DNA from: Halomicronema sp. CCY15110
GTDB taxonomy: Bacteria > Cyanobacteriota > Cyanobacteriia > Phormidesmidales > Phormidesmidaceae
DNA length: 64,000 nt
NCBI RefSeq assembly: GCF_016888165.1
Contig: NZ_JACSWC010000299.1
Coordinates: forward strand, 46,193-110,192
Reading direction: 5' to 3'
Shown: in pieces, positions 23,943 through 62,981 of the stretch
How the letters are laid out: every line of letters starts with the position of its first letter
How positions within the stretch are numbered: the stretch's first letter is position 1
The notes under the pieces: model-generated
Databases searched by the model: none
What the model saw: only the letters and a program-made list of their open reading frames with translations
Told to the model about the DNA's origin: nothing
Position numbers and translations under genes: made by a program

Positions 23943-24250
23943 CGGGTTCGTTTACCAGGGCATTCCATAACTTTGCCATGGGCCTTGTTCGCCATAAAGT
24001 TTCCAACACCTCATTCACGACTCATACGGTTTTAGGCTTGCCATGTCCCGTATGCACATTCGGCTTATGGCAGTACATAGCCCAACAAGCTTCAAAGAAT
24101 ATCAGCTCTGATGTGGGACATTTCAAAACTAAATTGGGATGAAATAGCCCTACCTCACGAAGTACTTTCCCCAGCATCATCAGTATCTGTTGCACTTCAA
24201 ATTTGAATTGGCGCATTATCGATCAGCATCCTTGATAAAGGCTCAAAAAT

Positions 24251-25366
24251 CTAAGCAGTCATTCCCATTTTTCGTAACCAACGATAATGAGATAATAATC
24301 CTGACCGAAAAGAACGATGCTGGTTATATCTCACTCCATATTCTCGACAAGTCTGCTCCACGACTTTAGAAATTTCAGGATAGTTGACATGGCAGATATT
24401 AGGAAATAAATGGTGCTCGACCTGAAAATTCAAACCACCCAGAAGCCATGTCATTACATGGTTATTTCGAGAGAAGTTTACTGTTGTTTCGATCTGATGC
24501 ACTGCCCACTCTTTCTCAATGAGATTCAACTCGACAATTGGTGATGGAAAATCGGCGGCTTCGACCACATGCGCTAGTTGAAATACTACGCTCAGCACTA
24601 GCCCTAAGGTAATAGCGACTAATCCATAGCTGGCTAAAACTTGCCATAGCGTGTGAACGGATAATGGAATCGCAAAGGCAAGCACGAAGAATACTAGTTT
24701 ACCGCCCAAAAATATGGCTAGATTGCTGGATTTAGGACGTGGATAGCGGCGATCGCCAATTTTGCCCGAGATCAGAGAATAAAAATCGTCATAGAAATGC
24801 CACTTAATCGCTAACAATCCATACAGCAACCACAAATAATAGTGTTGCCAACGGTGGAAGGCGAAGTGCGAATGAGAAGGAGCAAGTCGCCCAAAAATCC
24901 CCACATTCAGATCCATGTCATGATCAGCAATGTTGGTATAGGTATGATGGAAGAAATTGTGCTTCCAATGCCAAATATAAGAACTACCGCCAATCAGATC
25001 TAAACTCATTGCCATGAGCTGATTCACCCATCGCACATCAGAATAGGCGTGATGGGCACCATCATGTTGAATCCCAAAACCAATGCTTGCTGTAACGGCA
25101 CCAAGCATGATGCACAAAGGAATGACCTGCCACCAGGTCTGAGCAACCCAAACTAATAGAGCATATAACCCGAAAAAACTCAGCAACAAGATAATGGTTT
25201 TTGCATACATTTGCGGACAATCCCGCACCTTGCGATCTGGATTTTGAAAAAAATCGTCAACCCTTCGTCTTAATTCCGTCTGAAACCCACTATTCTTAGT
25301 AAACTTTATTTTTTTTGCAACCTCTTCTCCAAGAACCACAGACTGATGAGATTTATCGACTTGCAT
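24251..25366 (-). CDS. Acyl-lipid fatty acid desaturase (front-end/Delta6-like His-box pattern)
   Basis: Three His boxes: HDGAHH, HNFFHHTYTN and QVEHHLFPNICH. Multiple TM helices. The gene is distinctly AT-richer than its surroundings. Confidence 0.85.
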   Translation of the reverse strand: MQVDKSHQSVVLGEEVAKKIKFTKNSGFQTELRRRVDDFFQNPDRKVRDCPQMYAKTIILLLSFFGLYALLVWVAQTWWQVIPLCIMLGAVTASIGFGIQHDGAHHAYSDVRWVNQLMAMSLDLIGGSSYIWHWKHNFFHHTYTNIADHDMDLNVGIFGRLAPSHSHFAFHRWQHYYLWLLYGLLAIKWHFYDDFYSLISGKIGDRRYPRPKSSNLAIFLGGKLVFFVLAFAIPLSVHTLWQVLASYGLVAITLGLVLSVVFQLAHVVEAADFPSPIVELNLIEKEWAVHQIETTVNFSRNNHVMTWLLGGLNFQVEHHLFPNICHVNYPEISKVVEQTCREYGVRYNQHRSFRSGLLSHYRWLRKMGMTA

Positions 25367-25653
25367 CTTTTACTGTACCTAGCTCTCAACTATTGATATC
25401 TTGAGTCAGCGTCCAAGCATCTCTTCTCCCTAAATTATTTAAGCAAACGCGACGTCACAACATGGCATTGATCTGTTTTAGAAGCTTACGCTCGAGTGCA
25501 TATCATCCGGTTTCAGTTTTGAAATGCCACAGATGAAAATCTGGCTATCGCCAGTTAGACATTACCTATCGGGACTCTGCTCCCAATTCCGATGTGTGGT
25601 ATTCCAAAACCAAATTGGTATCACCCAGCCAGTCACTGTCCTCAGTCGAAATG

Positions 25654-26046
25654 TTACTTTCCCGCTAATCCCTCAGGCTCTAGCGCAAGTAAAAAATCGG
25701 GAATCTCTAAAACGTGCCAATACACCAGGGCAGTGACGATAACGGTATACAGCGTCGAACTCCCAAACCCAATCAGCAAATCTCGTTGAGGATGCCGCCG
25801 CTCGTCGGCCAAGAAGATATCCGTGGCGCCAAACTGCATCATGACCATTCCCAAAACGTTCGATAGCCAATAGCCCGCGAGCGTACCGGGCACAAACCAA
25901 CTGGGGTGCAGCCAGCTAATCGCATAGCCGACCACGATCGCGATCGGCAGATTAAAAAACACATCATTCCACCAGGACAGGGGCGACAGCATATAGCCGA
26001 CGCCAACGAGCAGACCCCCACGCAAGTTTTGTTTGAGCGACTTCAT
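25654..26046 (-). CDS. Small integral membrane protein, hypothetical
   Basis: 130 aa with several hydrophobic helices. Confidence 0.4.
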   Translation of the reverse strand: MKSLKQNLRGGLLVGVGYMLSPLSWWNDVFFNLPIAIVVGYAISWLHPSWFVPGTLAGYWLSNVLGMVMMQFGATDIFLADERRHPQRDLLIGFGSSTLYTVIVTALVYWHVLEIPDFLLALEPEGLAGK

Positions 26047-30806: not shown

Positions 30807-30941
30807 AACCCTGCCCTGATGACCGATTTCAGACGCCCTGTGAAGGTGGCTTGGCCCAGAAGTGTTACTGAAAATCCAACAGACTTCAAACGAAGCAGCG
30901 CACAGCTACTCAAATTGACTGTGCTATTTTTTCCCTTACCC

Positions 30942-33059
30942 TTAGCTCAATAGCTTGCGCGCCTGCTCCTGCATCGTGCCCGATACGTATGTCGAAGGTG
31001 ATATATCTTGAACTTCAACCCTAGTGACTTTGACTCCCCACGGTTCAGTAGCTTCATCAAGAATATCTAACAGTGCTTGATTCAATTCATTCCTACTACC
31101 GAAGACGTGCGACAAAGATATTTTGCCGATTTCCGATCTCAATGCCGCGACGACCACCTCACGAATGGCATCACTAACATTTTCAATTTCGTAGTAAGTA
31201 CGCTCTAGATCCATGATTTTCCAATACACTACAGCGTCGATATCCAACGGAAAGTTGTCATGTGTAGTAATTGAAAGTGGCAGCACATCTAGCATGCGTT
31301 CCCGAATACTTTCTTCCCAGACAATCGTGTCTAAAAAAGGAACTATGAAATTTAGACCTGGTCTAAGCTTTCTGTGGTATCGGCCCAAGCGCTCGACTAA
31401 TGCTTGATTGCTCTGATTGACTATTCTTATAGCACCAACTGTGTAGCCACCAATGACTATGAGGGCTAAGATGGGAAATAGAGAGGGAGCCATGGCCGCA
31501 TTTGGAGTGGCGTAAAGAAGGATAAAAGCAAAAAAGCCAATGATCACATATGGAATTATCCATTTTTTAAGGAATAACGTATTATTAGTTTTTCTCCGTG
31601 AATTTTCTGCTTCCGTATTTTGATCTGCGCTCTTTTTAATGAATTCGATAACTTGAACAAAATTCTTAGTATATCTTTCTGCCCAAACAAAATTATTCTC
31701 GTATTTTCTTTTCCAATTAAGTGCTATTTTCAAGTCAAGATCTCTCATGAGGGCAGCCTTTCCTTCTTCATATGCTTGGGCACGATCTGACAAACGTATA
31801 TAGTCTCGTGCTGCCTCAGCTTCTTCATCCATCCAACTCTGAAGACGGCCCCAAATACGCATGAGGCTTTCTTGTGAAATATCAATGATGGTGTCTTCCT
31901 GCAGATCGTTGACTAAAGGTGGCATTAGATACGAAACACCTCGCTCTCGAAAACGATTAATGATCGGAATAAGCTCTGATTTGTTTTTTCTAGTGACTGA
32001 ACCGAGTTCTGCCACAGAACAAGGGCGACGGATTTCTCGATTATCAACACCACGTTCTGTTAATCTCTTAAAGATTGTTTCAATTATTTTCCGAGATTCC
32101 TGATTAGAGAAGCTCAGATAAATTTGATCGGCATGAAGAGAGAGGGCCTGGGCCATGCCGCCGATCTCCTCGTAATGTTCCAGATCCAGCGGGACGTCTG
32201 GAGTGTGCTGATCTTCCCAGTGGTCCCAGGTGCGCATGAGGGCATGCTGCAAAATCGGCAACTGATCGGGGTTATCCCCGGTGTCGTTCAGCAACCGATT
32301 TACCAGGCGCGGCGTAATGGTCGCGCCGCCCACCGCCACTGGCCCCTCAATGGCTCGCCGCAACTGATCCCGCGTCAGTCGAGGAATCAGATACTGGCTA
32401 TCGTTCAGGGTTTCCGGCAGGTCACGAAACTGGGCACAGTCGCCCAAAAAGTCCGATCGCATGGTCAGCACCACAAAAATCGGCACCGTCCGCTGGTTCA
32501 CCGCGGCGAGCAGCAGCTTCACAAAGGCGGCCGCCTCATCTTCCGCCTCTAAGTAATGGCCCCCGGCCGCCGCCTGCGCTTTAAACCGAAACAGTTCCTC
32601 AAACTGGTCGACCACGACTAGCAGGCTTTCATCTGGGGCCAGGCGAGCTTGCTGGGTTACCTCCACCAGGCCCAGGCTGCCCCGCCGCAGGGTACTCTCC
32701 GTCAGGGCTCGGCGAATCACGGCTTCATCATGAGCTGCTGACACCCCAAACACATCAGGATCGTTCAACGCCGTGGCCAACTTGTACATCGGCGCACTGC
32801 CCGGCCGCAACACGGCGATGCGCCAGCTAGAGGTGGCTCCCGGCAAAAAGCCGCTGTAAAGCGAGGGCAGCAACCCCGCCCGCACCAGGGAAGATTTGCC
32901 ACTGCCAGAGGTGCCGACCACTCCCAAAAAGCGGGTACGATGCAGGCGCCGGATGAGCTCGTCAGACTGCCCTTCGCGGCCAAAAAACAGATGTTCCTCA
33001 TCCAGTTCAAAGGGCCGCAGACCGGGGAAGGGATTGGTGCGATTAGGTGTGACTACCAT
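30942..33059 (-). CDS. STAND-type P-loop NTPase fused to two TM helices and an SPFH/band-7 (stomatin/HflK-like) domain
   Basis: N-term NPFPGLRPFELDEEHLFFGREGQSDEL...FLGVVGTSGSGKSSLVRAGLLPSL (Walker A) and Walker B LLVVVDQFEE. TM helices WIIPYVIIGFFAFILLYATP and LFPILALIVIGGYTVGAI. C-term GLNFIVPFLDTIVW...ITTHDNFPLDIDAVVYWKI...VVVAALRSEIGKISLSHVF...WGVKVTRVEVQDI is an SPFH domain. The NTPase half is GC-rich. The TM/SPFH half (approx 30942-32100) is markedly AT-rich. Confidence 0.75.
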   Translation of the reverse strand: MVVTPNRTNPFPGLRPFELDEEHLFFGREGQSDELIRRLHRTRFLGVVGTSGSGKSSLVRAGLLPSLYSGFLPGATSSWRIAVLRPGSAPMYKLATALNDPDVFGVSAAHDEAVIRRALTESTLRRGSLGLVEVTQQARLAPDESLLVVVDQFEELFRFKAQAAAGGHYLEAEDEAAAFVKLLLAAVNQRTVPIFVVLTMRSDFLGDCAQFRDLPETLNDSQYLIPRLTRDQLRRAIEGPVAVGGATITPRLVNRLLNDTGDNPDQLPILQHALMRTWDHWEDQHTPDVPLDLEHYEEIGGMAQALSLHADQIYLSFSNQESRKIIETIFKRLTERGVDNREIRRPCSVAELGSVTRKNKSELIPIINRFRERGVSYLMPPLVNDLQEDTIIDISQESLMRIWGRLQSWMDEEAEAARDYIRLSDRAQAYEEGKAALMRDLDLKIALNWKRKYENNFVWAERYTKNFVQVIEFIKKSADQNTEAENSRRKTNNTLFLKKWIIPYVIIGFFAFILLYATPNAAMAPSLFPILALIVIGGYTVGAIRIVNQSNQALVERLGRYHRKLRPGLNFIVPFLDTIVWEESIRERMLDVLPLSITTHDNFPLDIDAVVYWKIMDLERTYYEIENVSDAIREVVVAALRSEIGKISLSHVFGSRNELNQALLDILDEATEPWGVKVTRVEVQDISPSTYVSGTMQEQARKLLS

Positions 33060-33062
33060 CGG

Positions 33063-34556
33063 TTATACTGACCCTCCGGCATGGCCTAACGAAGCGACAA
33101 ACTCGGCCAACAGCGTGGGCTGAAAGCCCTGATCGCCAGGAATCATTAACACCTCTGGATCAGAAAACTTTTGCTTGCCGGGGGCCGCCACATACACCGC
33201 CTTTGCCAGCAACGGTTTCGAGCGACCGTACAGCGTCTTTTTCAAGGCATTCAGGCGACGCTTGAGCCACAGGGCACTGGCCTCGCCGTAGTAAATTAGC
33301 ACCGCCTCACACTGCTGAATCAACGCCTCCGAGCGGCTGAGGGTGCCCTGCTCGTAGTCCGGCAGCATCACCTGAAAATGCTGCTCTAACCACTCATACA
33401 GCGGCTCAATTGCCGGATTGTCTAGATCGCGCTCATCGCAGTCCAAATAAATCTGCACGCGGCCATCGGGGGCCCGGTCCAGGGGCCGCGCCACCGGCGG
33501 CGTCAAGCGGGTATAGATGATATCTTTCAACGCTTCCACATTGGTGCGGATAAAATCGGGGTCGCTCTGGAGTTCGGTCACGAAGTCATCCGGGGTGATG
33601 GCATCGGTATCGGGGGGCAGCCACAGCAACCGCGAAAAGTCGGACCGTCCTTGCCCACATTGGGCCGCTAGCGCCACCTGGTCTCGGGTGCGCAGGGTCG
33701 CCAACTGGCGATAAATCTGTTCCTGAGTGGGCGACTGCCCCGCCGGTGGCTGACTCGGGTTGGGACTCAGCAGATGCACCGACAAGTGGGCGCGGGTCAG
33801 CGCTTCACACACTGTTTGCGCAAACGCCCCCGGCTCACTGGGCAACGGCTGATCCGGCAGCACCTGATGGCCCGCCTGTTCTAACTCCCGCCGAATGCAC
33901 TCGCGATCGACTTGCAAATCGGGGGTGGTGTCGGCCAGATAAATCACCTTGCGGTCAGCGGGCACCGCTCCCAGCAAAGGTGCCGCCAGGGCCGGCGGCC
34001 CGAGCTGAGCATCGAGAATGTCCAGGGTTTGATGAATGTCGTAGGCTAAGTCATTCAACTTGGCGTAAAACTTCCGCTCCTGCTCTGGCCCATAGACCCG
34101 GTCAAACTCTTGGGGCCGACCGGCATCATCAATTTCGTAAAATTCATACCCCAAGAAATTTGCCACCACCGCTGGGTGCTGCTCGATGGGCAGGTAAGTT
34201 TTGATCACCTTAAACAACCGTGTTTTGGTCTCTCCGGCCCGCAAGCCGCCCTGCTGATCCGCCGCCTGACAAAACCCCTGGAGCTCTCTCATACACCAGT
34301 CCGATTGCAAATAGCGCGGCGACAGCACCGACACCAGCAGTGCCGACTGAGTGAGGGCCTCAAAAATGGCCTCATCGAGATCTTCGTTGCCCCAGAGTCG
34401 GCGATCGCGCCAAATTCGCGATTCTTTGCCCCGCAGCTGCGACAAACGAATCTCCAAGGCTTTGTGGAAGGCGGATATCCAACCCGCTTCGTCGGGGTTT
34501 AACGATTGGTTATCAATGTGGGTGAAGCTGATAAAGACATCCTGCGCGAAAGTCAT
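33063..34556 (-). CDS. TIR domain protein (N-terminal TIR plus two further TIR-like/Rossmann-like repeats)
   Basis: DVFISFTHIDN...WISAFHKALEIRLSQLRGKESRIWRD...LLVSVLSPRYLQSDWCMRELQGF is a canonical TIR. Two further repeats with a similar strand pattern (KVIYLADT..., RVQIYLDCDE...AVLIYYGEAS). Its stop lies 3 nt upstream of the NTPase-SPFH gene start. Confidence 0.75.
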   Translation of the reverse strand: MTFAQDVFISFTHIDNQSLNPDEAGWISAFHKALEIRLSQLRGKESRIWRDRRLWGNEDLDEAIFEALTQSALLVSVLSPRYLQSDWCMRELQGFCQAADQQGGLRAGETKTRLFKVIKTYLPIEQHPAVVANFLGYEFYEIDDAGRPQEFDRVYGPEQERKFYAKLNDLAYDIHQTLDILDAQLGPPALAAPLLGAVPADRKVIYLADTTPDLQVDRECIRRELEQAGHQVLPDQPLPSEPGAFAQTVCEALTRAHLSVHLLSPNPSQPPAGQSPTQEQIYRQLATLRTRDQVALAAQCGQGRSDFSRLLWLPPDTDAITPDDFVTELQSDPDFIRTNVEALKDIIYTRLTPPVARPLDRAPDGRVQIYLDCDERDLDNPAIEPLYEWLEQHFQVMLPDYEQGTLSRSEALIQQCEAVLIYYGEASALWLKRRLNALKKTLYGRSKPLLAKAVYVAAPGKQKFSDPEVLMIPGDQGFQPTLLAEFVASLGHAGGSV

Positions 34557-38156: not shown

Positions 38157-38426
38157 AGCCTCAGGAATGAGGAGCAAATAACATCCAGATTGTTAGGGCA
38201 GGCATCTTGCCTGCCTGGGGACAGCCGAGACGGCTGTTCCAACTGATTAAATTCTCATTCCTTAGCAAAGGGTTTACAGCGCCTAGACAAAAGCTCAGCC
38301 GCAAAGTTCTGACGCCTGACCAGGAACAGTCTCCATACTCATCGGCCCAGCTACCCAACCACCCAGCTACCCATTCACTTCCCACAACCGGCATGTGGTT
38401 TTCTCGCTGCTCCCTCTCGCCACTCC

Positions 38427-43884: not shown

Positions 43885-45759
43885 TTAGTTTGCTGGATTA
43901 GTGGATGAGACTTGCCACCAGCGGACGGTTTCATCGGCGGCGGTGCTGAACAGGGTCTGGCCATCCGGCGCGAATCGCAAATCACTGATCGTCCAGCCGT
44001 GATGCAGCACTGTGACCCGGTGGCGGTTGGCCGAGGCCCATTGCCAGAGGCGAATGGTGCCATCGCGACTGCCGATCGCCAGCCAGGTTTCATCCGCACT
44101 GAGGGCGATCGCGCTGACGGCATCCTGACATCGTTCGAGTTCTGCGTGCTGCCCAAAATCGAGGAGCGACCACACCACGACGCGCCCGGTGCGATCGCCG
44201 GTGATGAGGGCGGGGTCGCTGGCGCTCAGGGTCACCGCTCGTAGCGGGGCTTTGGCCGTCCAAGTATGCAGTAATTGACCGCTGGGGAGTGCCCACAGTC
44301 TCAAGGTGCCCGCTTCGCCCACACTGGCCAGGCGCGTGCCGTCGGGACTCAGCGCGAGATCGTTGACTCGGCCCGCATGACGCCTGAGATCGAAGCTGCG
44401 GGTTCCCTGGTTCAGATCCCAAAGCGAGATGCGGCCGGCGACATCAGCCACCGCCAACGTTTTGCCATCGGGGGTGAGGGCGATCGCGGTAATTTGCCCA
44501 CCGGGCTGTCGCAACGATTGTTGCAATCGATAGGTGGTCAAATCCCATTGCAAAATCTGGCCGTCTTGCCCAGCGGTGATCAGGCGATCGCCCGCTGGCT
44601 GAAACGCTACTGCCGTGACGGCATCCCGGTGACCCGCGCCGAAGCCCAGCCGGGGGGCCAGGGTTTGTAGCACTTCGCCAGTTTGCCGATCCCAAAGCTG
44701 TACGGTGTGATCGCTGTTGGCGGTGGCTATGGCTCGACCATCGGGACTCAGGGCCAGGGCGTTCACCGTGCGCCCTGGGGTCGGCCAGGTGTGGGTACAG
44801 CGCCAGGTGGTTGTCTGAGGGGCCAGCAGCGAGTTGGGCCGCGATCGCGGTGGCCCCAGTCCGGCGGGTGCCAGCTCTGCCAAAACGGCGTCAGCCGTGG
44901 CGTAACGACTGCGGAGCGATCGCGCCACCAGGCGATCAAGCACTCGCCCTAGGGCCTCGCCCACGGGGGTCGGCGCAAAGTCACGCCACACCCACCGATC
45001 TGCCGCCACGGAGTAAAGATCAAAGGGATGTTGCCCCGTCAATAAATGCAGGCAAGTGATGCCCAAGCCGTAGAGATCGCTGGCGGGCACGGCTTTGCCC
45101 AGGGCTTGCTCGGGGGCGGCGTAACCGGCGCTGCCGATAATAGTGCCCGTGCGTTCCAGTTCCGTGGCAGTGGGGGCGGTGCGGGCAGCGCCAAAATCGA
45201 CGAGGATCGGCGGCCCCTCGGGAGGCAGCAAAATATTTTCGGGCTTGATGTCGCGATGGATGATGCCCTGTTGGTGAATGAATTGCAGCACGGGCAACAG
45301 CGCCATCAGCAGCGATCGCACCTGCGGTTCATCAAAGACTCCGTCGGCCTGCAAGACCTGCTCCAAATTGCGTCCGGCGATGTAGGACTGCACCAGACAA
45401 AGGTCGCGGCTCGATTCCAGAATGGCGATGAGTTGAGGAATCTGGGGGTGTCGTCCCAGCGTGGCGAGGCGTTTGGCCTCGGCCAAGTCCCGCTCACGGC
45501 TGCCCTGCGATCGCACAATTTGTTTGATCACGCATTGCTGCGGCGGCGACTCGCCTTCATCCCACGCTAAAAACGTGCGCCCAAAGCCCCCCCGCCCCAG
45601 TTCCTTCACAGGCCGAAAGCGCTGACCCAATCGCAACCGCGCCCCGCAGGACTGGCAGCGATCGCGATCGTCCCCATTTTCCGGGTGGGGGCATTGGGGA
45701 TTGATGCAGAGGGTGACCACGACAGTGTGCGCCATGCATGGCGGTATCAGTGCTCTCAA
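43885..45759 (-). CDS. Ser/Thr protein kinase with N-terminal zinc ribbon and C-terminal WD40 repeats
   Basis: CxxC...CxxC N-term. Kinase motifs GRGGFGRTF, HRDIKPENILL, DFG, APE. C-terminal WD40 repeats (IRLWD, LWDL etc.). Confidence 0.85.
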   Translation of the reverse strand: MRALIPPCMAHTVVVTLCINPQCPHPENGDDRDRCQSCGARLRLGQRFRPVKELGRGGFGRTFLAWDEGESPPQQCVIKQIVRSQGSRERDLAEAKRLATLGRHPQIPQLIAILESSRDLCLVQSYIAGRNLEQVLQADGVFDEPQVRSLLMALLPVLQFIHQQGIIHRDIKPENILLPPEGPPILVDFGAARTAPTATELERTGTIIGSAGYAAPEQALGKAVPASDLYGLGITCLHLLTGQHPFDLYSVAADRWVWRDFAPTPVGEALGRVLDRLVARSLRSRYATADAVLAELAPAGLGPPRSRPNSLLAPQTTTWRCTHTWPTPGRTVNALALSPDGRAIATANSDHTVQLWDRQTGEVLQTLAPRLGFGAGHRDAVTAVAFQPAGDRLITAGQDGQILQWDLTTYRLQQSLRQPGGQITAIALTPDGKTLAVADVAGRISLWDLNQGTRSFDLRRHAGRVNDLALSPDGTRLASVGEAGTLRLWALPSGQLLHTWTAKAPLRAVTLSASDPALITGDRTGRVVVWSLLDFGQHAELERCQDAVSAIALSADETWLAIGSRDGTIRLWQWASANRHRVTVLHHGWTISDLRFAPDGQTLFSTAADETVRWWQVSSTNPAN

Positions 45760-55960: not shown

Positions 55961-56132
55961 TGACCTAATTAGTTCAGTGATTAGAAGGGTGGGTATTTGC
56001 TCACCCTGTTTCTTATTAGCAAGCCCCTCAACTCAAAATGTCATCCCAGGGTGTTGAAGAGTGAAACATTTCGGGAAATATTGTGGAAATAATTAAATTT
56101 TCACCTTCCAAAACTAAGCAGGAGACGCAGAT

Positions 56133-57107
56133 ATGATTGATGGGATAGACCAACTTATTGCACTTTATGGAAACCCACATAAATTTGTGAAAGCTTTTTT
56201 AGAAAGCACTTTGTTCATGCCGCCAGAGATCGTTCAGCAAAGAAATCAAGAAATGATCGAAGCTTATAAAGCTGGCGGCAAGTTTCCTATCCGGTATTCT
56301 CCATCTCATCATGAGGCTTTGGGCGTTAGAAATAAAGCAGAAGCTATTGTCTTAACAAGAGAAAATGAAACTCACTTGCCTGCTTATCCATCTTTCAATA
56401 TCAAAATTGACAACGATGGAAATCATGAGAATAGACGTTCTATAAAAAGATATCTTGGCCAAACTATTAGTACAGGCAAACATAGCACAGTAAAGAATTA
56501 CATTATTTCCCACGTATGGGGACTGGCTTCTCACCCACTGTTCTTCTCTTCTTTATGGAATATTGTATTGATCCCAGCTCATTTTAATTATTTAATGGAT
56601 AAGGACCCAGAATCGCATCCTGTGGTGAAGACAGTCAAAGAATCAATCCAGCAAAAATGTATTTCTATGTATCGGTTTTGTGAGCAGCTTGCTCCCGAAA
56701 TCTCAGAAATTGAAGAATTTAGAAGTCTGTTCTTTGTGAAACACAGCCAGGAGGATGAACCGCAATATAGCATTGCATTTTTAACGAGAGAAGGTGTCGA
56801 GCGACAACAAAAAGAGATTTCTATATCTGAAGACGAACAGGTTCTGCTTGAAAGGCTTCTAAGTAAGATGGGCAAGAAATTCTTCATTGACTATTACGAG
56901 TCTTACGCAAGCGGCGAAGACTTAATGAAAGTAATTCCGATCGGTCTTTATACTTACAGCTCGATTCAAACAAGAATTAGTACAATGAGGCGAATCTTTC
57001 GCGAAAATCTCAATCTTAAGGCTTTAGTCTATATTCTGAGCAAGGATCAGTCGAAACTCGATGACGCATCTATTGAGTTGGCGAAAGATTTAGTTGAATT
57101 AGACTGA
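56133..57107 (+). CDS. Hypothetical protein in a low-GC islet; possible HNH-like nuclease motif
   Basis: Region approx 56000-57110 is clearly AT-rich versus the flanks. Motif SHVWGLASHPLFFSSLWNIVLIPAHFN has an H...N...H spacing compatible with an HNH fold (weak). Confidence 0.45.
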   Translation: MIDGIDQLIALYGNPHKFVKAFLESTLFMPPEIVQQRNQEMIEAYKAGGKFPIRYSPSHHEALGVRNKAEAIVLTRENETHLPAYPSFNIKIDNDGNHENRRSIKRYLGQTISTGKHSTVKNYIISHVWGLASHPLFFSSLWNIVLIPAHFNYLMDKDPESHPVVKTVKESIQQKCISMYRFCEQLAPEISEIEEFRSLFFVKHSQEDEPQYSIAFLTREGVERQQKEISISEDEQVLLERLLSKMGKKFFIDYYESYASGEDLMKVIPIGLYTYSSIQTRISTMRRIFRENLNLKALVYILSKDQSKLDDASIELAKDLVELD

Positions 57108-57501
57108 TAAAAGTGAATGTCTCTGTCGAGGTTTATGGCAGCATACTTATGAAAGAATATTGTCTCTTTAAATGTAACTTAAAAATGGGAAGCGATCGCT
57201 ATCTCCGAGTTGCAGGATGATGACGATATCGCGTTCACCTCTACCCTTTAAGAAGTCAACCTTCGCCAGAGATGTCGCAAGGCGTTACACGAAGCACACT
57301 ACAGCTTCGTTATAATCCGACTAAGGCTGGATAGCCTTACTTTTATGACTGAACTTTTAGAGCAGGCGATCGCGCAACTCAGGAACCTGGATGCGGATAG
57401 GCAAGCTGCGATCGCCCCACTCCCCACAAACTCAACTACTGGCAGCGATCGCGATGTTGCATAATTTTGCTGCACTTCACCGTTGAGCCAGGAACGAAAA
57501 G

Positions 57502-58080
57502 ATGACCAAGCGATGCGAATGGTGCGGCGACGACCCGCTCTACGTCTCCTACCATGATCATGAATGGGGCATCCCGATTCATGACGATCGGCTGTTGTTT
57601 GAGTTCTTGATTCTAGAGGGGGCGCAGGCGGGGTTGAGTTGGCTCACCATCCTGAAGAAACGCGAGAACTATCGCAAGGCATTTCACAACTTCGACTGTG
57701 AACAGATTGCCAGCTACACAGAAGCAGACGTGGCACGTTTACTTTCCGATTCCGGCATTGTCCGCAATCGACTCAAGATCGAATCAGCCATCAAGAACGC
57801 CCGCGCCGTCCTGAGTATTCAAGCGGAATTTGGCTCACTGGACGCTTATCTCTGGCGCTACGTCGATGGCATTCCCCAGCAAAATGCGTGGCAATCCATG
57901 GCGAAAGTTCCAGTCAAAACAGAACTCTCGGACATGATGAGCAAAGATTTGAAAAAACGAGGATGCAACTTCGTCGGTTCAACGATCTGCTATGCATTTA
58001 TGCAAGCAGTGGGCATGGTGAACGACCACACAACCGACTGCTTTCGTTACGAAGAAATTAAGGAATTGACCAAACCGTGA
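57502..58080 (+). CDS. tag: DNA-3-methyladenine glycosylase I
   Basis: CEWCGDDPLYVSYHDHEWGIPIHDDRLLFEFLILEGAQAGLSWLTIL is the Tag signature, including the Zn-binding Cys/His. Confidence 0.85.
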   Translation: MTKRCEWCGDDPLYVSYHDHEWGIPIHDDRLLFEFLILEGAQAGLSWLTILKKRENYRKAFHNFDCEQIASYTEADVARLLSDSGIVRNRLKIESAIKNARAVLSIQAEFGSLDAYLWRYVDGIPQQNAWQSMAKVPVKTELSDMMSKDLKKRGCNFVGSTICYAFMQAVGMVNDHTTDCFRYEEIKELTKP

Positions 58081-59860: not shown

Positions 59861-61234
59861 TCAAAGTTGACGCTGCATCAGCTCACTTCGAGCACTCGAT
59901 AACTCATCAGGTGGGGCAGCGGTCGGCCTAAATAACTGACTGAACTCAAGAGACACCGATGTAAATGCGATCGTCATCATAATGGTCTGAAAGCTATTTT
60001 GATTAGCCAATGAGCTCTCACTCATATTAATCATCAGGGTGTAAAAAATAAATGCGATCGGCCAAACATGGGGCCACGAAAAATCATTTTTGAGAATAGC
60101 CAGACCCTTGACAAAATATATCCACATCGCCAGCATAAGCAGGGCCAAACCAACAATCCCAATTTCTATAGCGAGATCCAGATAGCCATTGTGTGCATTG
60201 GGTAAATCCCATCTGACAGCGTTTCGCACATAAAATGACTCGCCATAAATTCCGTGCCAAAATCCGTCAAACCCATAGCCAAACCACAACCTTTCTTGAA
60301 TCTTTTCCAACATGACATCCCAGATGTCAGTACGGCCGGTCAACGTAGGATCCTTTCCTAACCAGCTGAGAACTGTGTTTGTAATCGTTTCTTGCCAGGT
60401 AACGATAAAGAAATAAAGACTCGCCAAAGCCATCAAAGACCAAGCAAACAACTGTCCCCGCAGCCGTAAGACCTGAATAGCATGCACGAGAAAAATAAGG
60501 AGCGATGTATATACCAGAGACGATGAAGACCTAGAGCCCACAACCATCATGAAGCTCGCAGCAAATCCTAAGTAAGCCAGCTTTTTATTAACGCAAAATC
60601 TCGTTTTTGAGTAAATGAGAAAGGTAAAGGTGCTCATGGTCATGACTGGCCCGAAAATATTCTTATGGCTGTAAATCCCTCTAAATGCCCCAGCGTGTTT
60701 ACCAAAATCAATTCCATATCCTGGAATGAGCATGAACAGGAAACTGGTCACCAGCACAACACTGAAAAACGTAATCAGCAGATTGAACTGCTCCTTTAAG
60801 CTGTAACGGCAGACAATATAGGAGCCAAACATAACCGTCCCCCCCATGCCAATCGCTGCCTTCATTGTCTCATCTGGTTTCTCAGACCAAATAACAGACA
60901 AGCCAATAAACATCAGAAATACCCAGTAAAGATAGTTGTTAGAGATAATTGCTAGCAACCGATCTTTAATCACGTTCCACTTTAAGACGAATAAACAAGT
61001 AGTAATGAGGTAGTTTAGCAACCATAGTAGAGTCAGGAAGCTGTAATCATGGTTTCCTCCTCCACCATCACCTTCTGAAGCACCACCAGTCATTATGAGA
61101 GTTACAATCCCTCTAGAAAATAGGATTAGATAGGCAAGGATCAACCACTTTTCAAGTTTGGCAAATAAATCAGTCTTTGCAAAATTGAAGGCCGGCCTTG
61201 TGACGTCTTGAACGAATGTAATTGCAGGAATCAT
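59861..61234 (-). CDS. O-antigen ligase/Wzy-like polysaccharide polymerase family membrane protein
   Basis: More than 10 TM helices. Wzy_C-type motif AHNGYLDLAIEIGIVGLALLMLAMWIYF. Low-GC gene. Confidence 0.7.
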   Translation of the reverse strand: MIPAITFVQDVTRPAFNFAKTDLFAKLEKWLILAYLILFSRGIVTLIMTGGASEGDGGGGNHDYSFLTLLWLLNYLITTCLFVLKWNVIKDRLLAIISNNYLYWVFLMFIGLSVIWSEKPDETMKAAIGMGGTVMFGSYIVCRYSLKEQFNLLITFFSVVLVTSFLFMLIPGYGIDFGKHAGAFRGIYSHKNIFGPVMTMSTFTFLIYSKTRFCVNKKLAYLGFAASFMMVVGSRSSSSLVYTSLLIFLVHAIQVLRLRGQLFAWSLMALASLYFFIVTWQETITNTVLSWLGKDPTLTGRTDIWDVMLEKIQERLWFGYGFDGFWHGIYGESFYVRNAVRWDLPNAHNGYLDLAIEIGIVGLALLMLAMWIYFVKGLAILKNDFSWPHVWPIAFIFYTLMINMSESSLANQNSFQTIMMTIAFTSVSLEFSQLFRPTAAPPDELSSARSELMQRQL

Positions 61235-61571
61235 TTTTGAATATTAGGATGCTAAAAAATAGCAGGAATATGAGCTTTGTCTTGAACTTCTAAAGGTGCT
61301 ATGAACTGAATATTGCGGATGCAGCTAGTGGATTTGCGAACCAATAGTCGAACGATCTAGAGGAGATTCCTCAGTTGGGATTAAGCTTTGGAGACAGCAT
61401 GGGACAATCAAATTCACTAACCAATCGCCCCATCATCGACTTAACTGACGATGAAAGCTTGAAGAGCTCAGGATGACATCGCAAGTCATTCTTGCCACTA
61501 ATTAAAGGGGTTTTAGTTGCCTATAGTCTGCCCTCGACACATCGTAGAAACCTGATTTCTTACCACTGATT

Positions 61572-62981
61572 CTAATGTTGAGTTTTGGCTAACTCTCGCT
61601 GTTTAGTGGTCTTGACCAAGGGGGAAGATAACACTTGAGTGCCAATAACAATACCTAAGGCCACAACCGCCCCCGCAAATACACCAACAGCGAGATACTT
61701 TTTGGTAGCACCGCCATCAGACGTCAATGGCGGACTTGCAGGTTCAATTACTGTGGTGTTGTAAGTGGCTTCGTTCTCTTGGACTTCTAGCTCTTGGACT
61801 CGCGTTAATAGGGCACTGTAGGTATCTTCGGCGACTGTGACGCGGCGCTCTAGGGCACGTTTTTGAGCACTCAGGGAAGGAATGCTGGATAGCCGCTGCT
61901 GATAGGTTGCTTGGGCGTTGCGCAAGGTCGTTAACTGCTGTTGCAAGCCAATGTAAGAAACCTCTGTATTCACAAAGTCTTGAATTAACACCTGCGCAAT
62001 ATCGTCGCCTGCGGCTCCTGCCCCTTGAATTCTGCTTAGAGAGATTCCTGAACCACCGCCTGCTAATGCAATTTGTTCTTGTAAGAACGCTTCTAATGAA
62101 TCCTTCCGAGACTGTAGCTGCCTCATGACTGGGCTACTGGGCTTGAACTGGGAGCCCTCGGCGGCCATTTCTCTTTCAACTTCTTGTAAATCCAGAAGCG
62201 CTTCTTGAACACCCGGATTCTGACGAATTGTGCCCACCAAAAACGCTTGGTCAGCGGTTAGGCCAATTTTACTTTGGAGAGCGTTGGCTTGGGCACGGGT
62301 GCCTTCCAAGGTTGATTGAACAGCGGCGGCCTCTCCGGCCAACCGCTCAACCTGATTAACCAGGGAAGTCGCTTCTTCCTCAAGAACGCCAATATTATTC
62401 TGCTCTAAAAAGTCGCGTAGCTCAGTTTCAGCTTGTTGAACAGCGAGCTCTGATTGCGGCAGCTGAGCCAGCAAAAACTCCTTCGCTTCGCTAGCCTCGG
62501 CGCGGTTTTGGGTAATTGAGTATTCTCGGTATCGATCAATAATCGTATTAACTACAGCGGCGGCTGTGTCGGGGTCGGCGCTGACGTAGTTAAGCTGGAG
62601 AACGTCGGTACCACTAACAATCCCGACTTCTAAGCTGCCACGTAGGGCATCGGGAGCAAGCAAGTCGCCATCTTCGCCCTGCAGCCCCAAAATTTCGATG
62701 GTTTCTTGCAGGACTGGCCGCGACTGAATAATCTCCATCTGTGTGGTCAACGGAGTTTGATCATTCAGCAAAGACTCCAGCCGATCGCCGCCGGCACCGG
62801 CAAAGTCGTTTAACACCGAAGCGTTGTTCTGTTTGGTAAACAGCAATTTGGCATCGGCGGTATAGGTTGGTTCAACCCTGGTCGAGGCAAAGACTGACAG
62901 AGCCACACAGGCCGTAAATGCACCGATCGCTAACAGCCCAGATTCACGAATAGAACGATTCATTTGTCTAATCTGCTGCAT
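61572..62981 (-). CDS. Polysaccharide chain-length determinant (Wzz/GumC/PCP family) protein
   Basis: N-terminal TM helix, long coiled-coil periplasmic region, C-terminal TM helix (YLAVGVFAGAVVALGIVIG). No kinase domain. Confidence 0.7.
   Translation of the reverse strand: MQQIRQMNRSIRESGLLAIGAFTACVALSVFASTRVEPTYTADAKLLFTKQNNASVLNDFAGAGGDRLESLLNDQTPLTTQMEIIQSRPVLQETIEILGLQGEDGDLLAPDALRGSLEVGIVSGTDVLQLNYVSADPDTAAAVVNTIIDRYREYSITQNRAEASEAKEFLLAQLPQSELAVQQAETELRDFLEQNNIGVLEEEATSLVNQVERLAGEAAAVQSTLEGTRAQANALQSKIGLTADQAFLVGTIRQNPGVQEALLDLQEVEREMAAEGSQFKPSSPVMRQLQSRKDSLEAFLQEQIALAGGGSGISLSRIQGAGAAGDDIAQVLIQDFVNTEVSYIGLQQQLTTLRNAQATYQQRLSSIPSLSAQKRALERRVTVAEDTYSALLTRVQELEVQENEATYNTTVIEPASPPLTSDGGATKKYLAVGVFAGAVVALGIVIGTQVLSSPLVKTTKQRELAKTQH

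Follow-up and report, generated by a model that had tools for sequence, protein, structure and literature searches.

A two-gene TIR and nSTAND1 NTPase pair with a stomatin-derived C-terminal end in Halomicronema sp. CCY15110

Gene layout and domain content of the pair

In this study, we analyzed a 64,000-nt stretch of DNA from Halomicronema sp. CCY15110 (the window), in which two adjacent genes encode a TIR-domain protein with three alpha/beta domains (TIR-x3 protein, gene 1) and a mosaic nSTAND1 NTPase that ends in two transmembrane (TM) helices and a truncated SPFH domain (gene 2; Table 1). The stop codon of gene 1 and the start codon of gene 2 are separated by 3 nt (TAA-CCG-ATG). The initial annotation had described two coupled ORFs here, and its coordinates and spacing were exact. 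The products are 100% identical to NCBI proteins of the same organism named 'TIR domain-containing protein' and 'SPFH domain-containing protein', respectively.

Table 1. Features of the gene pair (positions within the window)
Feature	Position	Strand	Basis
Gene 1, TIR-x3 protein, constant partner of the system	33063..34556	-	ORF, 497 aa
Domain 1, catalytic-type TIR, aa 1-185	34002..34556	-	Foldseek and conserved residues
E91 codon, putative catalytic glutamate, motif SDWCMRE	34284..34286	-	Sequence; Glu in 71/71
Domain 2, DUF4062/NIR-like alpha/beta, aa 200-352	33501..33959	-	PF13271 and hhalign
Domain 3, alpha/beta, aa 365-492	33081..33464	-	AF2 secondary structure
Gene 2, nSTAND1 NTPase, two TM helices, truncated SPFH; mosaic	30942..33059	-	ORF, 705 aa
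Constant core, P-loop NTPase and first helical domain, aa 1-306	32142..33059	-	Resident GC-rich DNA
Walker A GTSGSGKSS, aa 49-57	32889..32915	-	Translation; inside nSTAND1/AAA_16 match
Swapped-in C-terminal cassette, aa 307-705 plus ~20 nt past stop, ~1.2 kb	30922..32141	-	Breakpoints, GC3
TM helix 1, cassette-specific, aa ~500-519	31503..31562	-	Kyte-Doolittle hydropathy >1.6
TM helix 2, native N-terminal TM helix of stomatin-type protein, aa ~526-546	31422..31484	-	Hydropathy and alignment
Stomatin/QmcA-derived segment, aa 523-705 (183 residues)	30945..31493	-	Alignment to P0251 and QmcA

The canonical TIR domain proposed for the upstream gene was recovered by Pfam TIR_2 (E=3.5e-14, 53.8 bits with a cut-off of 28), and Pfam TIR was also matched. 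The AF2 model of the TIR-x3 protein (pLDDT 86.6) contains three alpha/beta domains. Foldseek matches of domain 1 included the TIR domains of RUN1 (RUN1 E100A among them), RPP1, SARM1, AbTir and SPARTA, with RUN1 and RPP1 as the closest folds. S85, W87, C88 and E91 are invariant across 71 family members, and E91 falls on the glutamate of the WCxxE motif of NADase TIRs. PF13271 (DUF4062) was matched at the position of domain 2 in 27 of the 71 members, and this domain is similar to domain 1 (hhalign E=0.002). Domain 3 has an invariant W430 in the family alignment and showed no hhalign similarity to domain 1 or domain 2. The 'two degenerate TIR-like repeats' suggested previously thus hold only in part. 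A conserved Glu was found neither in the alphaC region of domain 2 nor in domain 3; judged from the alignment, both domains are probably non-catalytic.

The STAND-type NTPase reported in the 705-aa protein was verified by a Pfam nSTAND1 match (PF20703, E=4.7e-96, 323 bits, aa 10-433), which places it in a conflict-system STAND clade and not in a housekeeping family. Walker A and Walker B are both present, and the fold resembles ORC/Cdc6 and the plant NLR NRC3. The AF2 model of this protein had a pLDDT of 80.1 and was poor over aa 540-585. Hydropathy analysis found two hydrophobic segments, in agreement with the two TM helices claimed earlier. The first is preceded by RRK...KK and followed by an uncharged loop (ATPNAAMAPS), and the second aligns with residues 4-24 of P0251, a standalone protein of the same genome. 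Based on the positive-inside rule, TM helix 1 would lead the chain back through the membrane, which would place both large domains in the cytoplasm.

A stomatin copy swapped into the locus

The SPFH similarity of the C-terminal end is strong by profile (Pfam Band_7/SPFH, E=2.4e-31, aa 546-700, profile positions 2-159 of 176), by sequence comparison with solved structures (QmcA 8z5g, E=9e-35, chain residues 7-176) and by fold (TM 0.8-0.92 to stomatin SPFH domains in Foldseek, with HflK/C-FtsH structures also among the matches). This end is 76% identical to P0251, aligned from Met1 and including the TM helix, and stops at the equivalent of residue 176 of 289 in P0251 and 176 of 305 in QmcA. It is a copy of a host QmcA/stomatin-type protein that lacks the C-terminal ring-closing region. 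Thus, the domain described as a 'complete SPFH' is whole as a globular unit, but the protein is truncated and has lost the C-terminal coiled-coil/ring-closing part. Genes of the standalone family of P0251 are located in NfeD-SPFH operons.

The position of the pair between carB and a GMC oxidoreductase gene is stable and vertically conserved in three related genomes. In two of them, the related cyanobacteria L009 and L011, the slot holds a version with a WD40 end. The core (aa 1-306) is 84% and 82% identical to these orthologs in DNA and 89-90% identical in protein sequence. Homology ends inside the codons of GGMAQALS/LHADQIY (~32118-32140) and restarts at ~30921, about 20 nt after the stop codon of gene 2. 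The intervening AT-rich cassette encodes, in order, a winged-helix-like unit, a helical stalk, a TM hairpin and the stomatin copy. Within it, the identity over aa 314-440 is 44% with WD40-type proteins versus 54-73% with SPFH-type proteins. GC3 of gene 2 falls from ~0.70 before the breakpoint to 0.37 in the cassette, with a change-point after codon 306 (0.71 to 0.37, logLR 41.5). At this locus, the WD40 end has been replaced by the SPFH cassette through recombination.

The abrupt change in composition, and a chimeric structure where the WD40 version normally sits, might also be expected if the mosaic gene were a recent recombination accident, that is, a functionless and decaying allele. This explanation is already disfavored and appears highly improbable, because the 705-codon ORF is intact with all motifs kept, and the same architecture recurs in 11 protein clusters (59-72% identity) from different hosts, always with a TIR partner. 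Besides, amino-acid conservation in the SPFH part is far above synonymous-site conservation, and purifying selection acts on this part. Truncation after the SPFH core was observed in all 11 fusions. The fused SPFH domains were non-monophyletic in 100/100 bootstraps (quartet sums 0.41 vs 0.82 and 0.88), which implies that stomatin-type domains have been captured repeatedly.

Distribution of the system and its C-terminal slot

The two genes represent one variant of a TIR and nSTAND1 system that is widespread and uncharacterized. Relatives were present in at least 571 genomes with a patchy distribution over several distant phyla. In 75 of 77 usable loci, the TIR-x3 gene is immediately followed by an nSTAND1 NTPase gene, and the two are typically separated by 2-3 nt or overlap by 4 nt. 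The WD40 end is the default (42/54 partners). The nSTAND1-TM-SPFH architecture is rare: the 1.84 billion representatives include a single cluster of it at 50% identity. Each of the six SPFH-type loci for which upstream sequence is available has a TIR gene of ~500 aa directly upstream, so the synteny of the pair is kept, while the flanking genes differ each time. Together with the family assignment of the NTPase and the strength of the SPFH similarity, this supports the interpretation in the initial annotation. Its remark that the architecture is not recognizable from described defence systems also held: PADLOC and NCBIfam models gave only weak matches to the pair, the TIR plus nSTAND1-TM-SPFH architecture is in none of these models, and we found no paper describing it.

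In relatives, the C-terminal slot also contains pieces of host membrane proteins (ARC6-like IMS and PrsW), which favors the conflict-system reading given below, and another membrane module, CHASE2. Since PrsW and CHASE2 share the slot, and a TM hairpin with an SPFH core belongs to a domain type known for membrane/microdomain association, the end may be only a tether. Sensing would then fall to the winged-helix/stalk or to domains 2 and 3 of the TIR protein, or would depend on the state of the membrane, and the resemblance to host stomatin would reflect origin and not mimicry. The missing ring-forming C-terminus also fits, as specific co-assembly is not guaranteed. However, a tether would require neither an SPFH core with 76-86% identity to standalone stomatins under purifying selection nor repeated derivation from standalone genes, and WD40 sensors fill the slot in most relatives. 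We regard a tether-only role as rather unlikely.

Effector-type domains (TIR, nucleotide cyclase) occupy the slot in some relatives, which counts against a strict sensor slot. The truncated stomatin copy might accordingly be an effector itself: on activation, clustered TM-SPFH stubs could damage the membrane or act as a poison on the host stomatin ring, alongside or in place of TIR activity, and a truncated subunit of a ring protein would be a classic dominant-negative design. Such a role seems quite improbable to us. An executor is already present, as a TIR partner with the invariant catalytic Glu is kept in every SPFH-type locus; lytic activity is not known for two TM helices plus a small SPFH core; and loss of stomatin/QmcA is not known to be lethal in bacteria.

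Association with a defence island or prophage, considered in the initial annotation, was not observed at the window locus: the flanks are housekeeping genes, with no prophage, mobile element or defence gene beside the pair. No relatives were detected in the viral contigs searched. Both results speak against a conflict system, as do the weakness of the PADLOC and NCBIfam matches and the vertical conservation of the locus, and the cassette's low GC3 is counted on the same side. SPFH proteins function in membrane protein quality control. Considering also the stable carB-GMC oxidoreductase position in three genomes, the pair could be a chromosomal module with no immune role that serves signaling or cell-fate decisions in filamentous cyanobacteria (for instance, sensing of membrane stress or programmed cell death triggered by stress), with the SPFH variant linking it to membrane quality control. 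We consider this improbable. The patchy spread over distant phyla, cassette swapping, hypervariable C-terminus and varied flanks in other genomes are hallmarks of conflict systems. One SPFH-type locus lies among caspase-nSTAND1, Trypco1 and NB-ARC genes, and the neighbors seen across other genomes include caspase-nSTAND1, NB-ARC and ThsA_Macro, which fits the same pattern. In addition, TIR and DUF4062 domains have been shown to be anti-phage NADases in other systems.

Proposed mechanism and comparison with known systems

On balance, we lean toward a two-gene, NLR-like and TIR-executed conflict system with a stomatin-like sensor or bait, most likely acting in anti-phage defence or abortive infection. 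Gene 1 would be the executor: its TIR domain keeps the catalytic glutamate, and the two domains behind it are probably non-catalytic. The nSTAND1 NTPase of gene 2 would be the switch, whose presumed sensor in most members is the WD40 propeller. Recombination within the GGMAQALS/LHADQIY codons exchanged the winged-helix-like unit, stalk and WD40 for the AT-rich cassette. The TM hairpin would hold the NTPase at the cytoplasmic membrane face, and the stomatin-like head may serve for sensing, either as a bait mimicking host stomatin or by co-assembly beside the host NfeD-stomatin ring. The latter is uncertain, as the fused SPFH lacks the ring-building region. Autoinhibition would be lifted when a factor from an invader bound to or perturbed SPFH domains of the stomatin type, or the membrane microdomain. 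nSTAND1 would then exchange nucleotide and oligomerize, clustering the TIR protein, whose E91 active site may cleave NAD+ and thereby deplete it or generate a signal, leading to growth arrest or cell death. We know of no phage or other pathogen factor that targets bacterial stomatin. SPFH proteins of phages are rare, and none came from cyanophages.

One close comparison is with nSTAND1-centred conflict systems, within which this NTPase clade (matched with 323 bits) was defined (Kaur, Iyer, Burroughs & Aravind 2021, eLife; PMC8195603). Shared features include association with TIR-type effectors, enrichment in multicellular/filamentous bacteria and variable sensor ends. However, the described systems couple effectors via fused effector-associated, Death-like or EAD adaptors, whereas the pair encodes its effector separately, as a three-domain TIR protein in which no adaptor could be recognized. 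Gene 2 also ends in a stomatin copy with a TM anchor, and that study makes no mention of SPFH. Avs and bNACHT are built on the same three-part plan (effector, STAND NTPase, C-terminal sensor) and likewise have NADase-type effectors (Avs2-NIR on the Avs side) activated through oligomerization, and an 'integrated decoy' mode has been hypothesized for bNACHT11 (PMC11702601). They differ in STAND clade, with no PADLOC or NCBIfam Avs match for the pair; the pair has its effector on a separate gene and a membrane anchor, and carries a host-protein copy where they have TPR-like repeats.

In QmcA-YbbJ and stomatin-NfeD scaffolds, a close homolog of the last 183 residues is found, native N-terminal TM helix included. 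Unlike these scaffolds, the fused end is missing the coiled-coil/C-terminal part needed to close the 16- to 26-mer rings, has no NfeD gene next to it, and follows a STAND NTPase and an additional TM helix within one protein. The eukaryotic TEP1/NWD1-type proteins (DUF4062-NACHT-WD40) share their parts list with the default TIR-DUF4062, STAND and WD40 system, but here the parts are divided between two genes, nSTAND1 takes the place of NACHT, and WD40 is replaced by TM-SPFH in the window. Domain 2 of the TIR-x3 protein resembles DUF4062/NIR TIR-like NADases, but stands second to a canonical TIR and lacks a conserved catalytic Glu.

The plant paired NLR-IDs (RRS1-WRKY, RGA5-HMA) likewise combine an NLR-type switch with a non-canonical domain copied from a host protein and have acquired integrated domains repeatedly, and plant TIR-NLRs use a TIR with a catalytic Glu as executor. 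This is an analogy and does not extend to homology of the whole systems. In the pair, a TM anchor also forms part of the integrated piece. In bacteria, the SPFH-ended pair may correspond to the 'integrated decoys' known from plant immune receptors.

Gene pair and its relatives

The initial annotation described two tightly coupled genes, and its reading of this locus held. Two co-directional ORFs are present on the minus strand at the positions listed in the table, with a spacing of 3 nt (junction TAA-CCG-ATG) and a GGAGGG motif 13 nt 5' of the gene 2 start codon; NCBI entries of Halomicronema sp. CCY15110 match both proteins at 100% identity. Pfam matches confirmed the TIR domain of gene 1 (TIR_2, E=3.5e-14, 53.8 bits with a cut-off of 28; TIR, 23.4 bits with a cut-off of 21.3) as well as the STAND NTPase (PF20703, nSTAND1, E=4.7e-96, 323.1 bits with a cut-off of 27.1, profile positions 1-374 of 379) and the Band_7/SPFH domain (E=2.4e-31, 109.6 bits with a cut-off of 23.6) of gene 2, and the two proposed TM helices (TM1 and TM2) correspond to hydrophobic segments before the SPFH domain.

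Features discussed in this section (coordinates are those of the window unless a relative locus is named)
Feature	Position	Strand	Length
Gene 1, TIR-x3 protein	33063..34556	-	497 aa
Gene 2, nSTAND1-2 TM-SPFH protein	30942..33059	-	705 aa
Core of gene 2	aa 1-306
nSTAND1 match	aa 10-433
Walker A	aa 49-57
TM1; TM2	about aa 500-519; about aa 526-546
Band_7/SPFH match	aa 546-700
Cassette (gene 2 aa 307-705 plus ~20 nt past the stop)	30922..32141
Conserved intergenic stretch	30830..30921
nSTAND1-WD40 gene, Leptolyngbya iicbica	L009:11497-15519		1340 aa
nSTAND1-WD40 gene, Leptolyngbyaceae MAG	L011:11494-14175		893 aa
SPFH-type fusion P0003, Leptothoe sp.	L002:8001-10970		989 aa
GmrSD_N/DUF262 gene, L. 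iicbica	L009:4420-6243
Intergenic region corresponding to the GmrSD_N/DUF262 gene	38157..38426		270 nt
Ser/Thr protein kinase-WD40 fusion	43885..45759	-	624 aa
Low-GC patches	24001-26000; 56001-58000; 60001-62000
Fatty-acid desaturase	24251..25366
Wzy_C O-antigen-ligase-like gene	59861..61234
ORFs with no Pfam match	56133..57107; 61572..62981

The AF2 model of gene 1 (pLDDT 86.6) contains three alpha/beta domains. Foldseek matched domain 1 to the TIR domains of RUN1, RPP1, SARM1, AbTir and SPARTA. Across an alignment of 71 diverse members of this family (TIR-x3), S85, W87, C88 and E91 are invariant, with Glu at E91 in 71/71; this residue lies within SDWCMRE, a WCxxE-type motif of the alphaC region, which we take to be the motif bearing the catalytic glutamate of NADase TIRs. 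Domain 2 occupies a DUF4062 position (PF13271 matches there in 27 of the 71 members, and none in a Pfam search of the window protein itself) and aligns with domain 1 in hhalign (E=0.002), with no conserved Glu in its alphaC region in the same alignment. Domain 3 carries an invariant Trp in place of the conserved Glu and showed no detectable similarity to domain 1 or 2 in profile-profile comparison, so it was rejected as a TIR repeat. Thus, gene 1 probably encodes one catalytic-type TIR and two non-catalytic domains, and the latter are candidates for coupling gene 1 to the NTPase. According to 2026 preprints, DUF4062 is a TIR-like NADase in anti-phage defence and in human TEP1. In some relatives (P0200, P0202, P0203, P0208 and P0209), a CHAT (caspase-like) domain is added at the N-terminus and would give the same chassis a second effector type.

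In gene 2, Walker A (GTSGSGKSS) and Walker B (LLVVVDQFEE) are intact in the translation. We read the domain boundaries and labels from its AF2 model (pLDDT 80.1), in which an NBD, a helical and a winged-helix module are seen, and Foldseek aligned this model to ORC/Cdc6 and NRC3 over about 450 columns.

The TIR-x3 family (~500 aa) spans Cyanobacteria, Acidobacteriota, Bacteroidota, Proteobacteria and other phyla, and a relative is encoded in at least 571 species-representative genomes. Among the best 80 loci, 77 had enough downstream sequence to score pairing; in 75 of them an nSTAND1 gene comes immediately next, usually after 2-3 nt or overlapping by 4 nt, and in the other two one lies nearby. 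A WD40 propeller forms the C-terminus of most complete nSTAND1 partners (42/54), and none of the best 80 loci has an SPFH-type partner. Other relatives end in TPR, an ARC6-like IMS domain, the intramembrane protease PrsW, DUF2914, TIR (alone or together with CHASE2) or PAS joined to a nucleotide cyclase; examples of non-repeat ends (ARC6/Ftn2-like IMS, PrsW, TIR+CHASE2 and PAS+adenylate/guanylate cyclase) are found in P0032, P0059, P0119, P0037 and P0025. Several of these modules are fragments of host membrane proteins, so domains of host origin may have been integrated repeatedly. Clustered at 90% identity, the nSTAND1-SPFH fusions fall into 11 groups, and a single 50%-identity representative among 1.84 billion matched the nSTAND1-SPFH query over its full length. 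Synteny of the SPFH-type pair, on which the proposed partnership depended, is conserved: the TIR gene is directly upstream in all six loci with upstream sequence, and the flanks are unrelated at each of the six. A system of a three-domain TIR protein and an nSTAND1 protein is thereby defined in at least 571 genomes and is worth testing as a defence system.

We compared the pair with catalogued systems. For Avs/AVAST and other STAND defence models, PADLOC gave only P-loop-level matches to mad3/mad8 (E about 2e-3) and NCBIfam gave none. ThsB models matched gene 1 weakly (E=9.6e-6, aa 30-89), and the operon contains no ThsA-like gene, unlike Thoeris, in which a ThsA (SIR2/Macro/SLOG) effector gene lies beside a ThsB-type TIR. 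The match to FxsC, the TIR-like protein of FxSxx-COOH systems, was below threshold (NCBIfam FxsC_Nterm, 46.2 bits vs a cut-off of 130). Gene 1 also differs from the DUF4062/NIR NADases (Swarozyc, Avs2-NIR, Vulcan/Vesta and Evangelion) in lacking their DUF4062 match and, in domain 2, a conserved catalytic Glu. With weak matches only in PADLOC and NCBIfam (ThsB, PDC-S66, FxsC_Nterm below its cut-off and mad3/mad8), membership of a catalogued system was rejected. The suggestion that this architecture is absent from described defence systems is borne out, as no STAND-SPFH fusion was found in PADLOC, NCBIfam or the searchable literature; the same sources gave no description of the three-domain-TIR/nSTAND1 pair.

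Exchange of the C-terminal cassette

Housekeeping genes flank the pair in the window, and its slot is shared with relatives. In the window and in both L009 (L. iicbica) and L011 (a Leptolyngbyaceae MAG), the pair sits between carB and a GMC oxidoreductase gene, with MotA/ExbB beyond carB and an ABC transporter after the GMC oxidoreductase in L. iicbica and the window; in the two relatives, an nSTAND1-WD40 gene comes after the TIR orthologue. The window DNA is 84% and 82% identical to these loci from upstream of the TIR gene to 32118, and homology returns at about 30818-30921, ~20 nt past the gene 2 stop. The crossover lies at ~32140 (aa 306/307): the protein is WD40-type-like through GGMAQALS and SPFH-type-like from LHADQIY. 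Identity to the WD40-type orthologues is 89-90% over residues 1-313 but only 44% over residues 314-440, which are 54-73% identical to SPFH-type proteins. As judged from these alignments, the WD40 end of gene 2 is replaced in situ by an SPFH end. In the AF2 model, the boundary separates the first helical domain, which holds the QHALMRTW motif, from a winged-helix-like unit, so the cassette is predicted to carry the winged-helix unit and the stalk along with the sensor end.

Base composition changes at nearly the same point. GC3 is 0.70 in the TIR gene and the gene 2 core and 0.29-0.44 in the cassette, with a likelihood change-point after codon 306, and the same drop occurs at codons 277-308 in the SPFH-type genes of three other GC-rich hosts and, more mildly, in a WD40-type gene. 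In four independent GC-rich hosts (window, L001, L004 and L008), the SPFH cassette has a GC3 of ~0.3-0.45 vs ~0.65-0.75 in the surrounding genes and genomes. Standalone stomatins of GC-rich lineages are nevertheless the nearest relatives of the cassette's SPFH part, with differences mainly AT-ward and synonymous. The AT-richness could stem from a pool of low-GC donors or from a mutational bias specific to the region. GC3 also falls in WD40-type genes, from 0.78 to 0.61 after codon 308 in L011 and from 0.66 to 0.46 after codon 491 in L009, which suggests that the constant/variable boundary and the turnover of cassettes characterise the gene family as a whole rather than the SPFH type alone.

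The junctions showed no repeats, promoters or terminators above shuffled expectation and no inverted repeats. Downstream of gene 2, the stretch that separates it from the convergent GMC oxidoreductase gene is also conserved in L. iicbica (core TTCG(G/T)TT(C/G)AAGTCTGTTG) and was not found beside other cassettes. It was rejected as an attachment site or RNA gene, being conserved only at the orthologous locus and having no Rfam or tRNA match, and is probably orthologous 3'-UTR or terminator sequence. Association with prophages or viruses was ruled out by the absence of any TIR-x3 or cassette relative among 2.9 million viral contigs, and the window locus has no tRNA, Rfam match, repeat or mobile-element gene. 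Elsewhere, P0003, a fusion with two Band_7 stretches, is flanked by a serine resolvase, Trypco1, a caspase-nSTAND1-pentapeptide gene and an NB-ARC gene, surroundings that look like a conflict-system island, and another SPFH-type pair lies near ThsA_Macro and a transposase.

Several other features of the region were noted. L. iicbica carries a GmrSD_N/DUF262 (type IV restriction-like) gene between MotA_ExbB and carB, where the window has an intergenic region without it. The kinase-WD40 fusion is unrelated to the pair and typical of filamentous cyanobacteria. Three low-GC patches (0.43-0.45 vs 0.55 for the window overall) contain the desaturase gene, the Wzy_C gene and the ORFs with no Pfam match.

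Origin of the SPFH module

Searches with the TM+SPFH segment alone retrieved ordinary standalone SPFH proteins from cyanobacteria (~275-290 aa, 76-78% identity), including P0251, a 289-aa protein of the window genome itself (76%). The fused segment aligns from Met1 of P0251 (MAPS(L/I)F...) through its TM helix to residue 176/289, and TM2 coincides with the TM of P0251, a membrane anchor directly before the SPFH domain. The closest solved structure was E. coli QmcA (8z5g, residues 7-176 of 305; E=9e-35), followed by stomatin rings, and the modelled SPFH core matched stomatin SPFH domains in Foldseek (TM 0.8-0.92, rmsd 1.1-1.7 Å). With the alignment ending at residue 176, the C-terminal coiled-coil/cap region for a closed ring is absent from gene 2. 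Nine of the ten other fusions also stop 3-55 residues past the SPFH match; the exception, P0003, runs on for 285 residues into a second SPFH copy.

NfeD was found upstream of 2/3 standalone homologues examined (L013 and L014, NfeD-SPFH operons) and was not called upstream of the third (L095). Gene 2 has no NfeD operon partner, with TIR-x3 upstream and the convergent GMC oxidoreductase downstream. The charge pattern (RRK..KK before TM1, an uncharged inter-helix loop and an R/K-rich segment after TM2), together with the positive-inside rule, predicts that both the NTPase and the SPFH core are cytoplasmic, and the extra TM1 would keep the native N-out/C-in orientation of the stomatin helix.

Three other origins were considered. 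SPFH proteins are encoded by some jumbo phages; phage origin or phage mimicry was set aside on the phage matches obtained, five records at 34-37% identity and none from a cyanophage. A recent duplication of the host stomatin gene was ruled out, as DNA identity was 72-73% and GC3 was 0.44 vs ~0.60. The L. iicbica gene, whose protein is identical to P0251, stood in for the standalone stomatin gene of the window genome. A single origin of all fused domains was also ruled out by trees and quartets, except for the window and P0002 copies, the only pair that grouped together, and weakly. The fused domains were monophyletic in 0/100 bootstraps of NJ trees, forming long branches among standalone proteins. 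The four-point test joined the window copy with a P0241-type standalone protein and the P0004 fusion with a Nodosilinea-type one (sums 0.41 vs 0.82 and 0.88), and the same behaviour was seen in 9/11 quartets in which a fused domain was set against a second fusion and the standalone protein closest to that fusion. Different fusions thus show independent affinities to different standalone clades. The fused copy in P0004 shares 86% of its protein sequence and 78% of its DNA sequence with the standalone copy, and 64/136 codons of identical residues differ, mostly AT-ward in the fused copy; such codon divergence under a kept protein indicates purifying selection on the protein.

Possible role in sensing

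Switches of the STAND/NLR type that act through TIR executors occur in bacteria, plants and animals alike, and the nSTAND1 clade was defined in a conflict-system setting. By sequence, the pair has the components of an NLR-like conflict system, namely a TIR executor whose active site appears intact, a STAND switch and a C-terminal module that varies. The most economical reading is that the constant TIR protein and NTPase core would form a signalling chassis, the C-terminal cassette would determine what gets sensed, and the sensor in the window strain would be a membrane-anchored mimic, or tether partner, of the host stomatin complex. The SPFH part might instead be a simple anchor, and it does lack the main oligomerisation region. 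The close likeness to a host protein, its upkeep by selection, the repeated re-derivation and the presence of other host-membrane-protein fragments (ARC6-like IMS and PrsW) in the same slot favour a specific role for the SPFH surface over plain anchoring. The slot of relatives also holds effector-type domains, and we know of no invader or phage factor that targets stomatin.

Decoy-based effector-target surveillance is known from plants, and gene 2 shares with NLRs with integrated decoys (NLR-IDs) a non-canonical receptor domain that copies a host protein. A tentative and, by our own estimate, rather improbable proposal is that gene 2 is a bacterial NLR-ID: a STAND immune switch whose integrated-decoy sensor is a truncated, membrane-anchored copy of the host stomatin/QmcA scaffold, repeatedly captured from standalone genes and moved between genomes as a swappable cassette. 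For a bacterial NLR, an integrated decoy has so far only been hypothesised, with no host homologue identified (PMC11702601).

What is unusual here is an integrated host-derived membrane module in a STAND/NLR-like TIR conflict system, with its swap documented at an orthologous locus. The orthologous loci of two relatives show directly that the sensor end is exchanged as a cassette at a fixed boundary, and the module that came in can be recognised as a copy of a housekeeping membrane protein of the host. The locus thus offers a specific example on which decoy- or guard-type sensing in bacteria could be tested, and it indicates the bacterial stomatin-NfeD complex as a possible invader target. If the proposal is true, decoy-based surveillance would exist in bacteria too, and the NfeD-stomatin microdomain of bacteria would be manipulated by invaders such as cyanophages.
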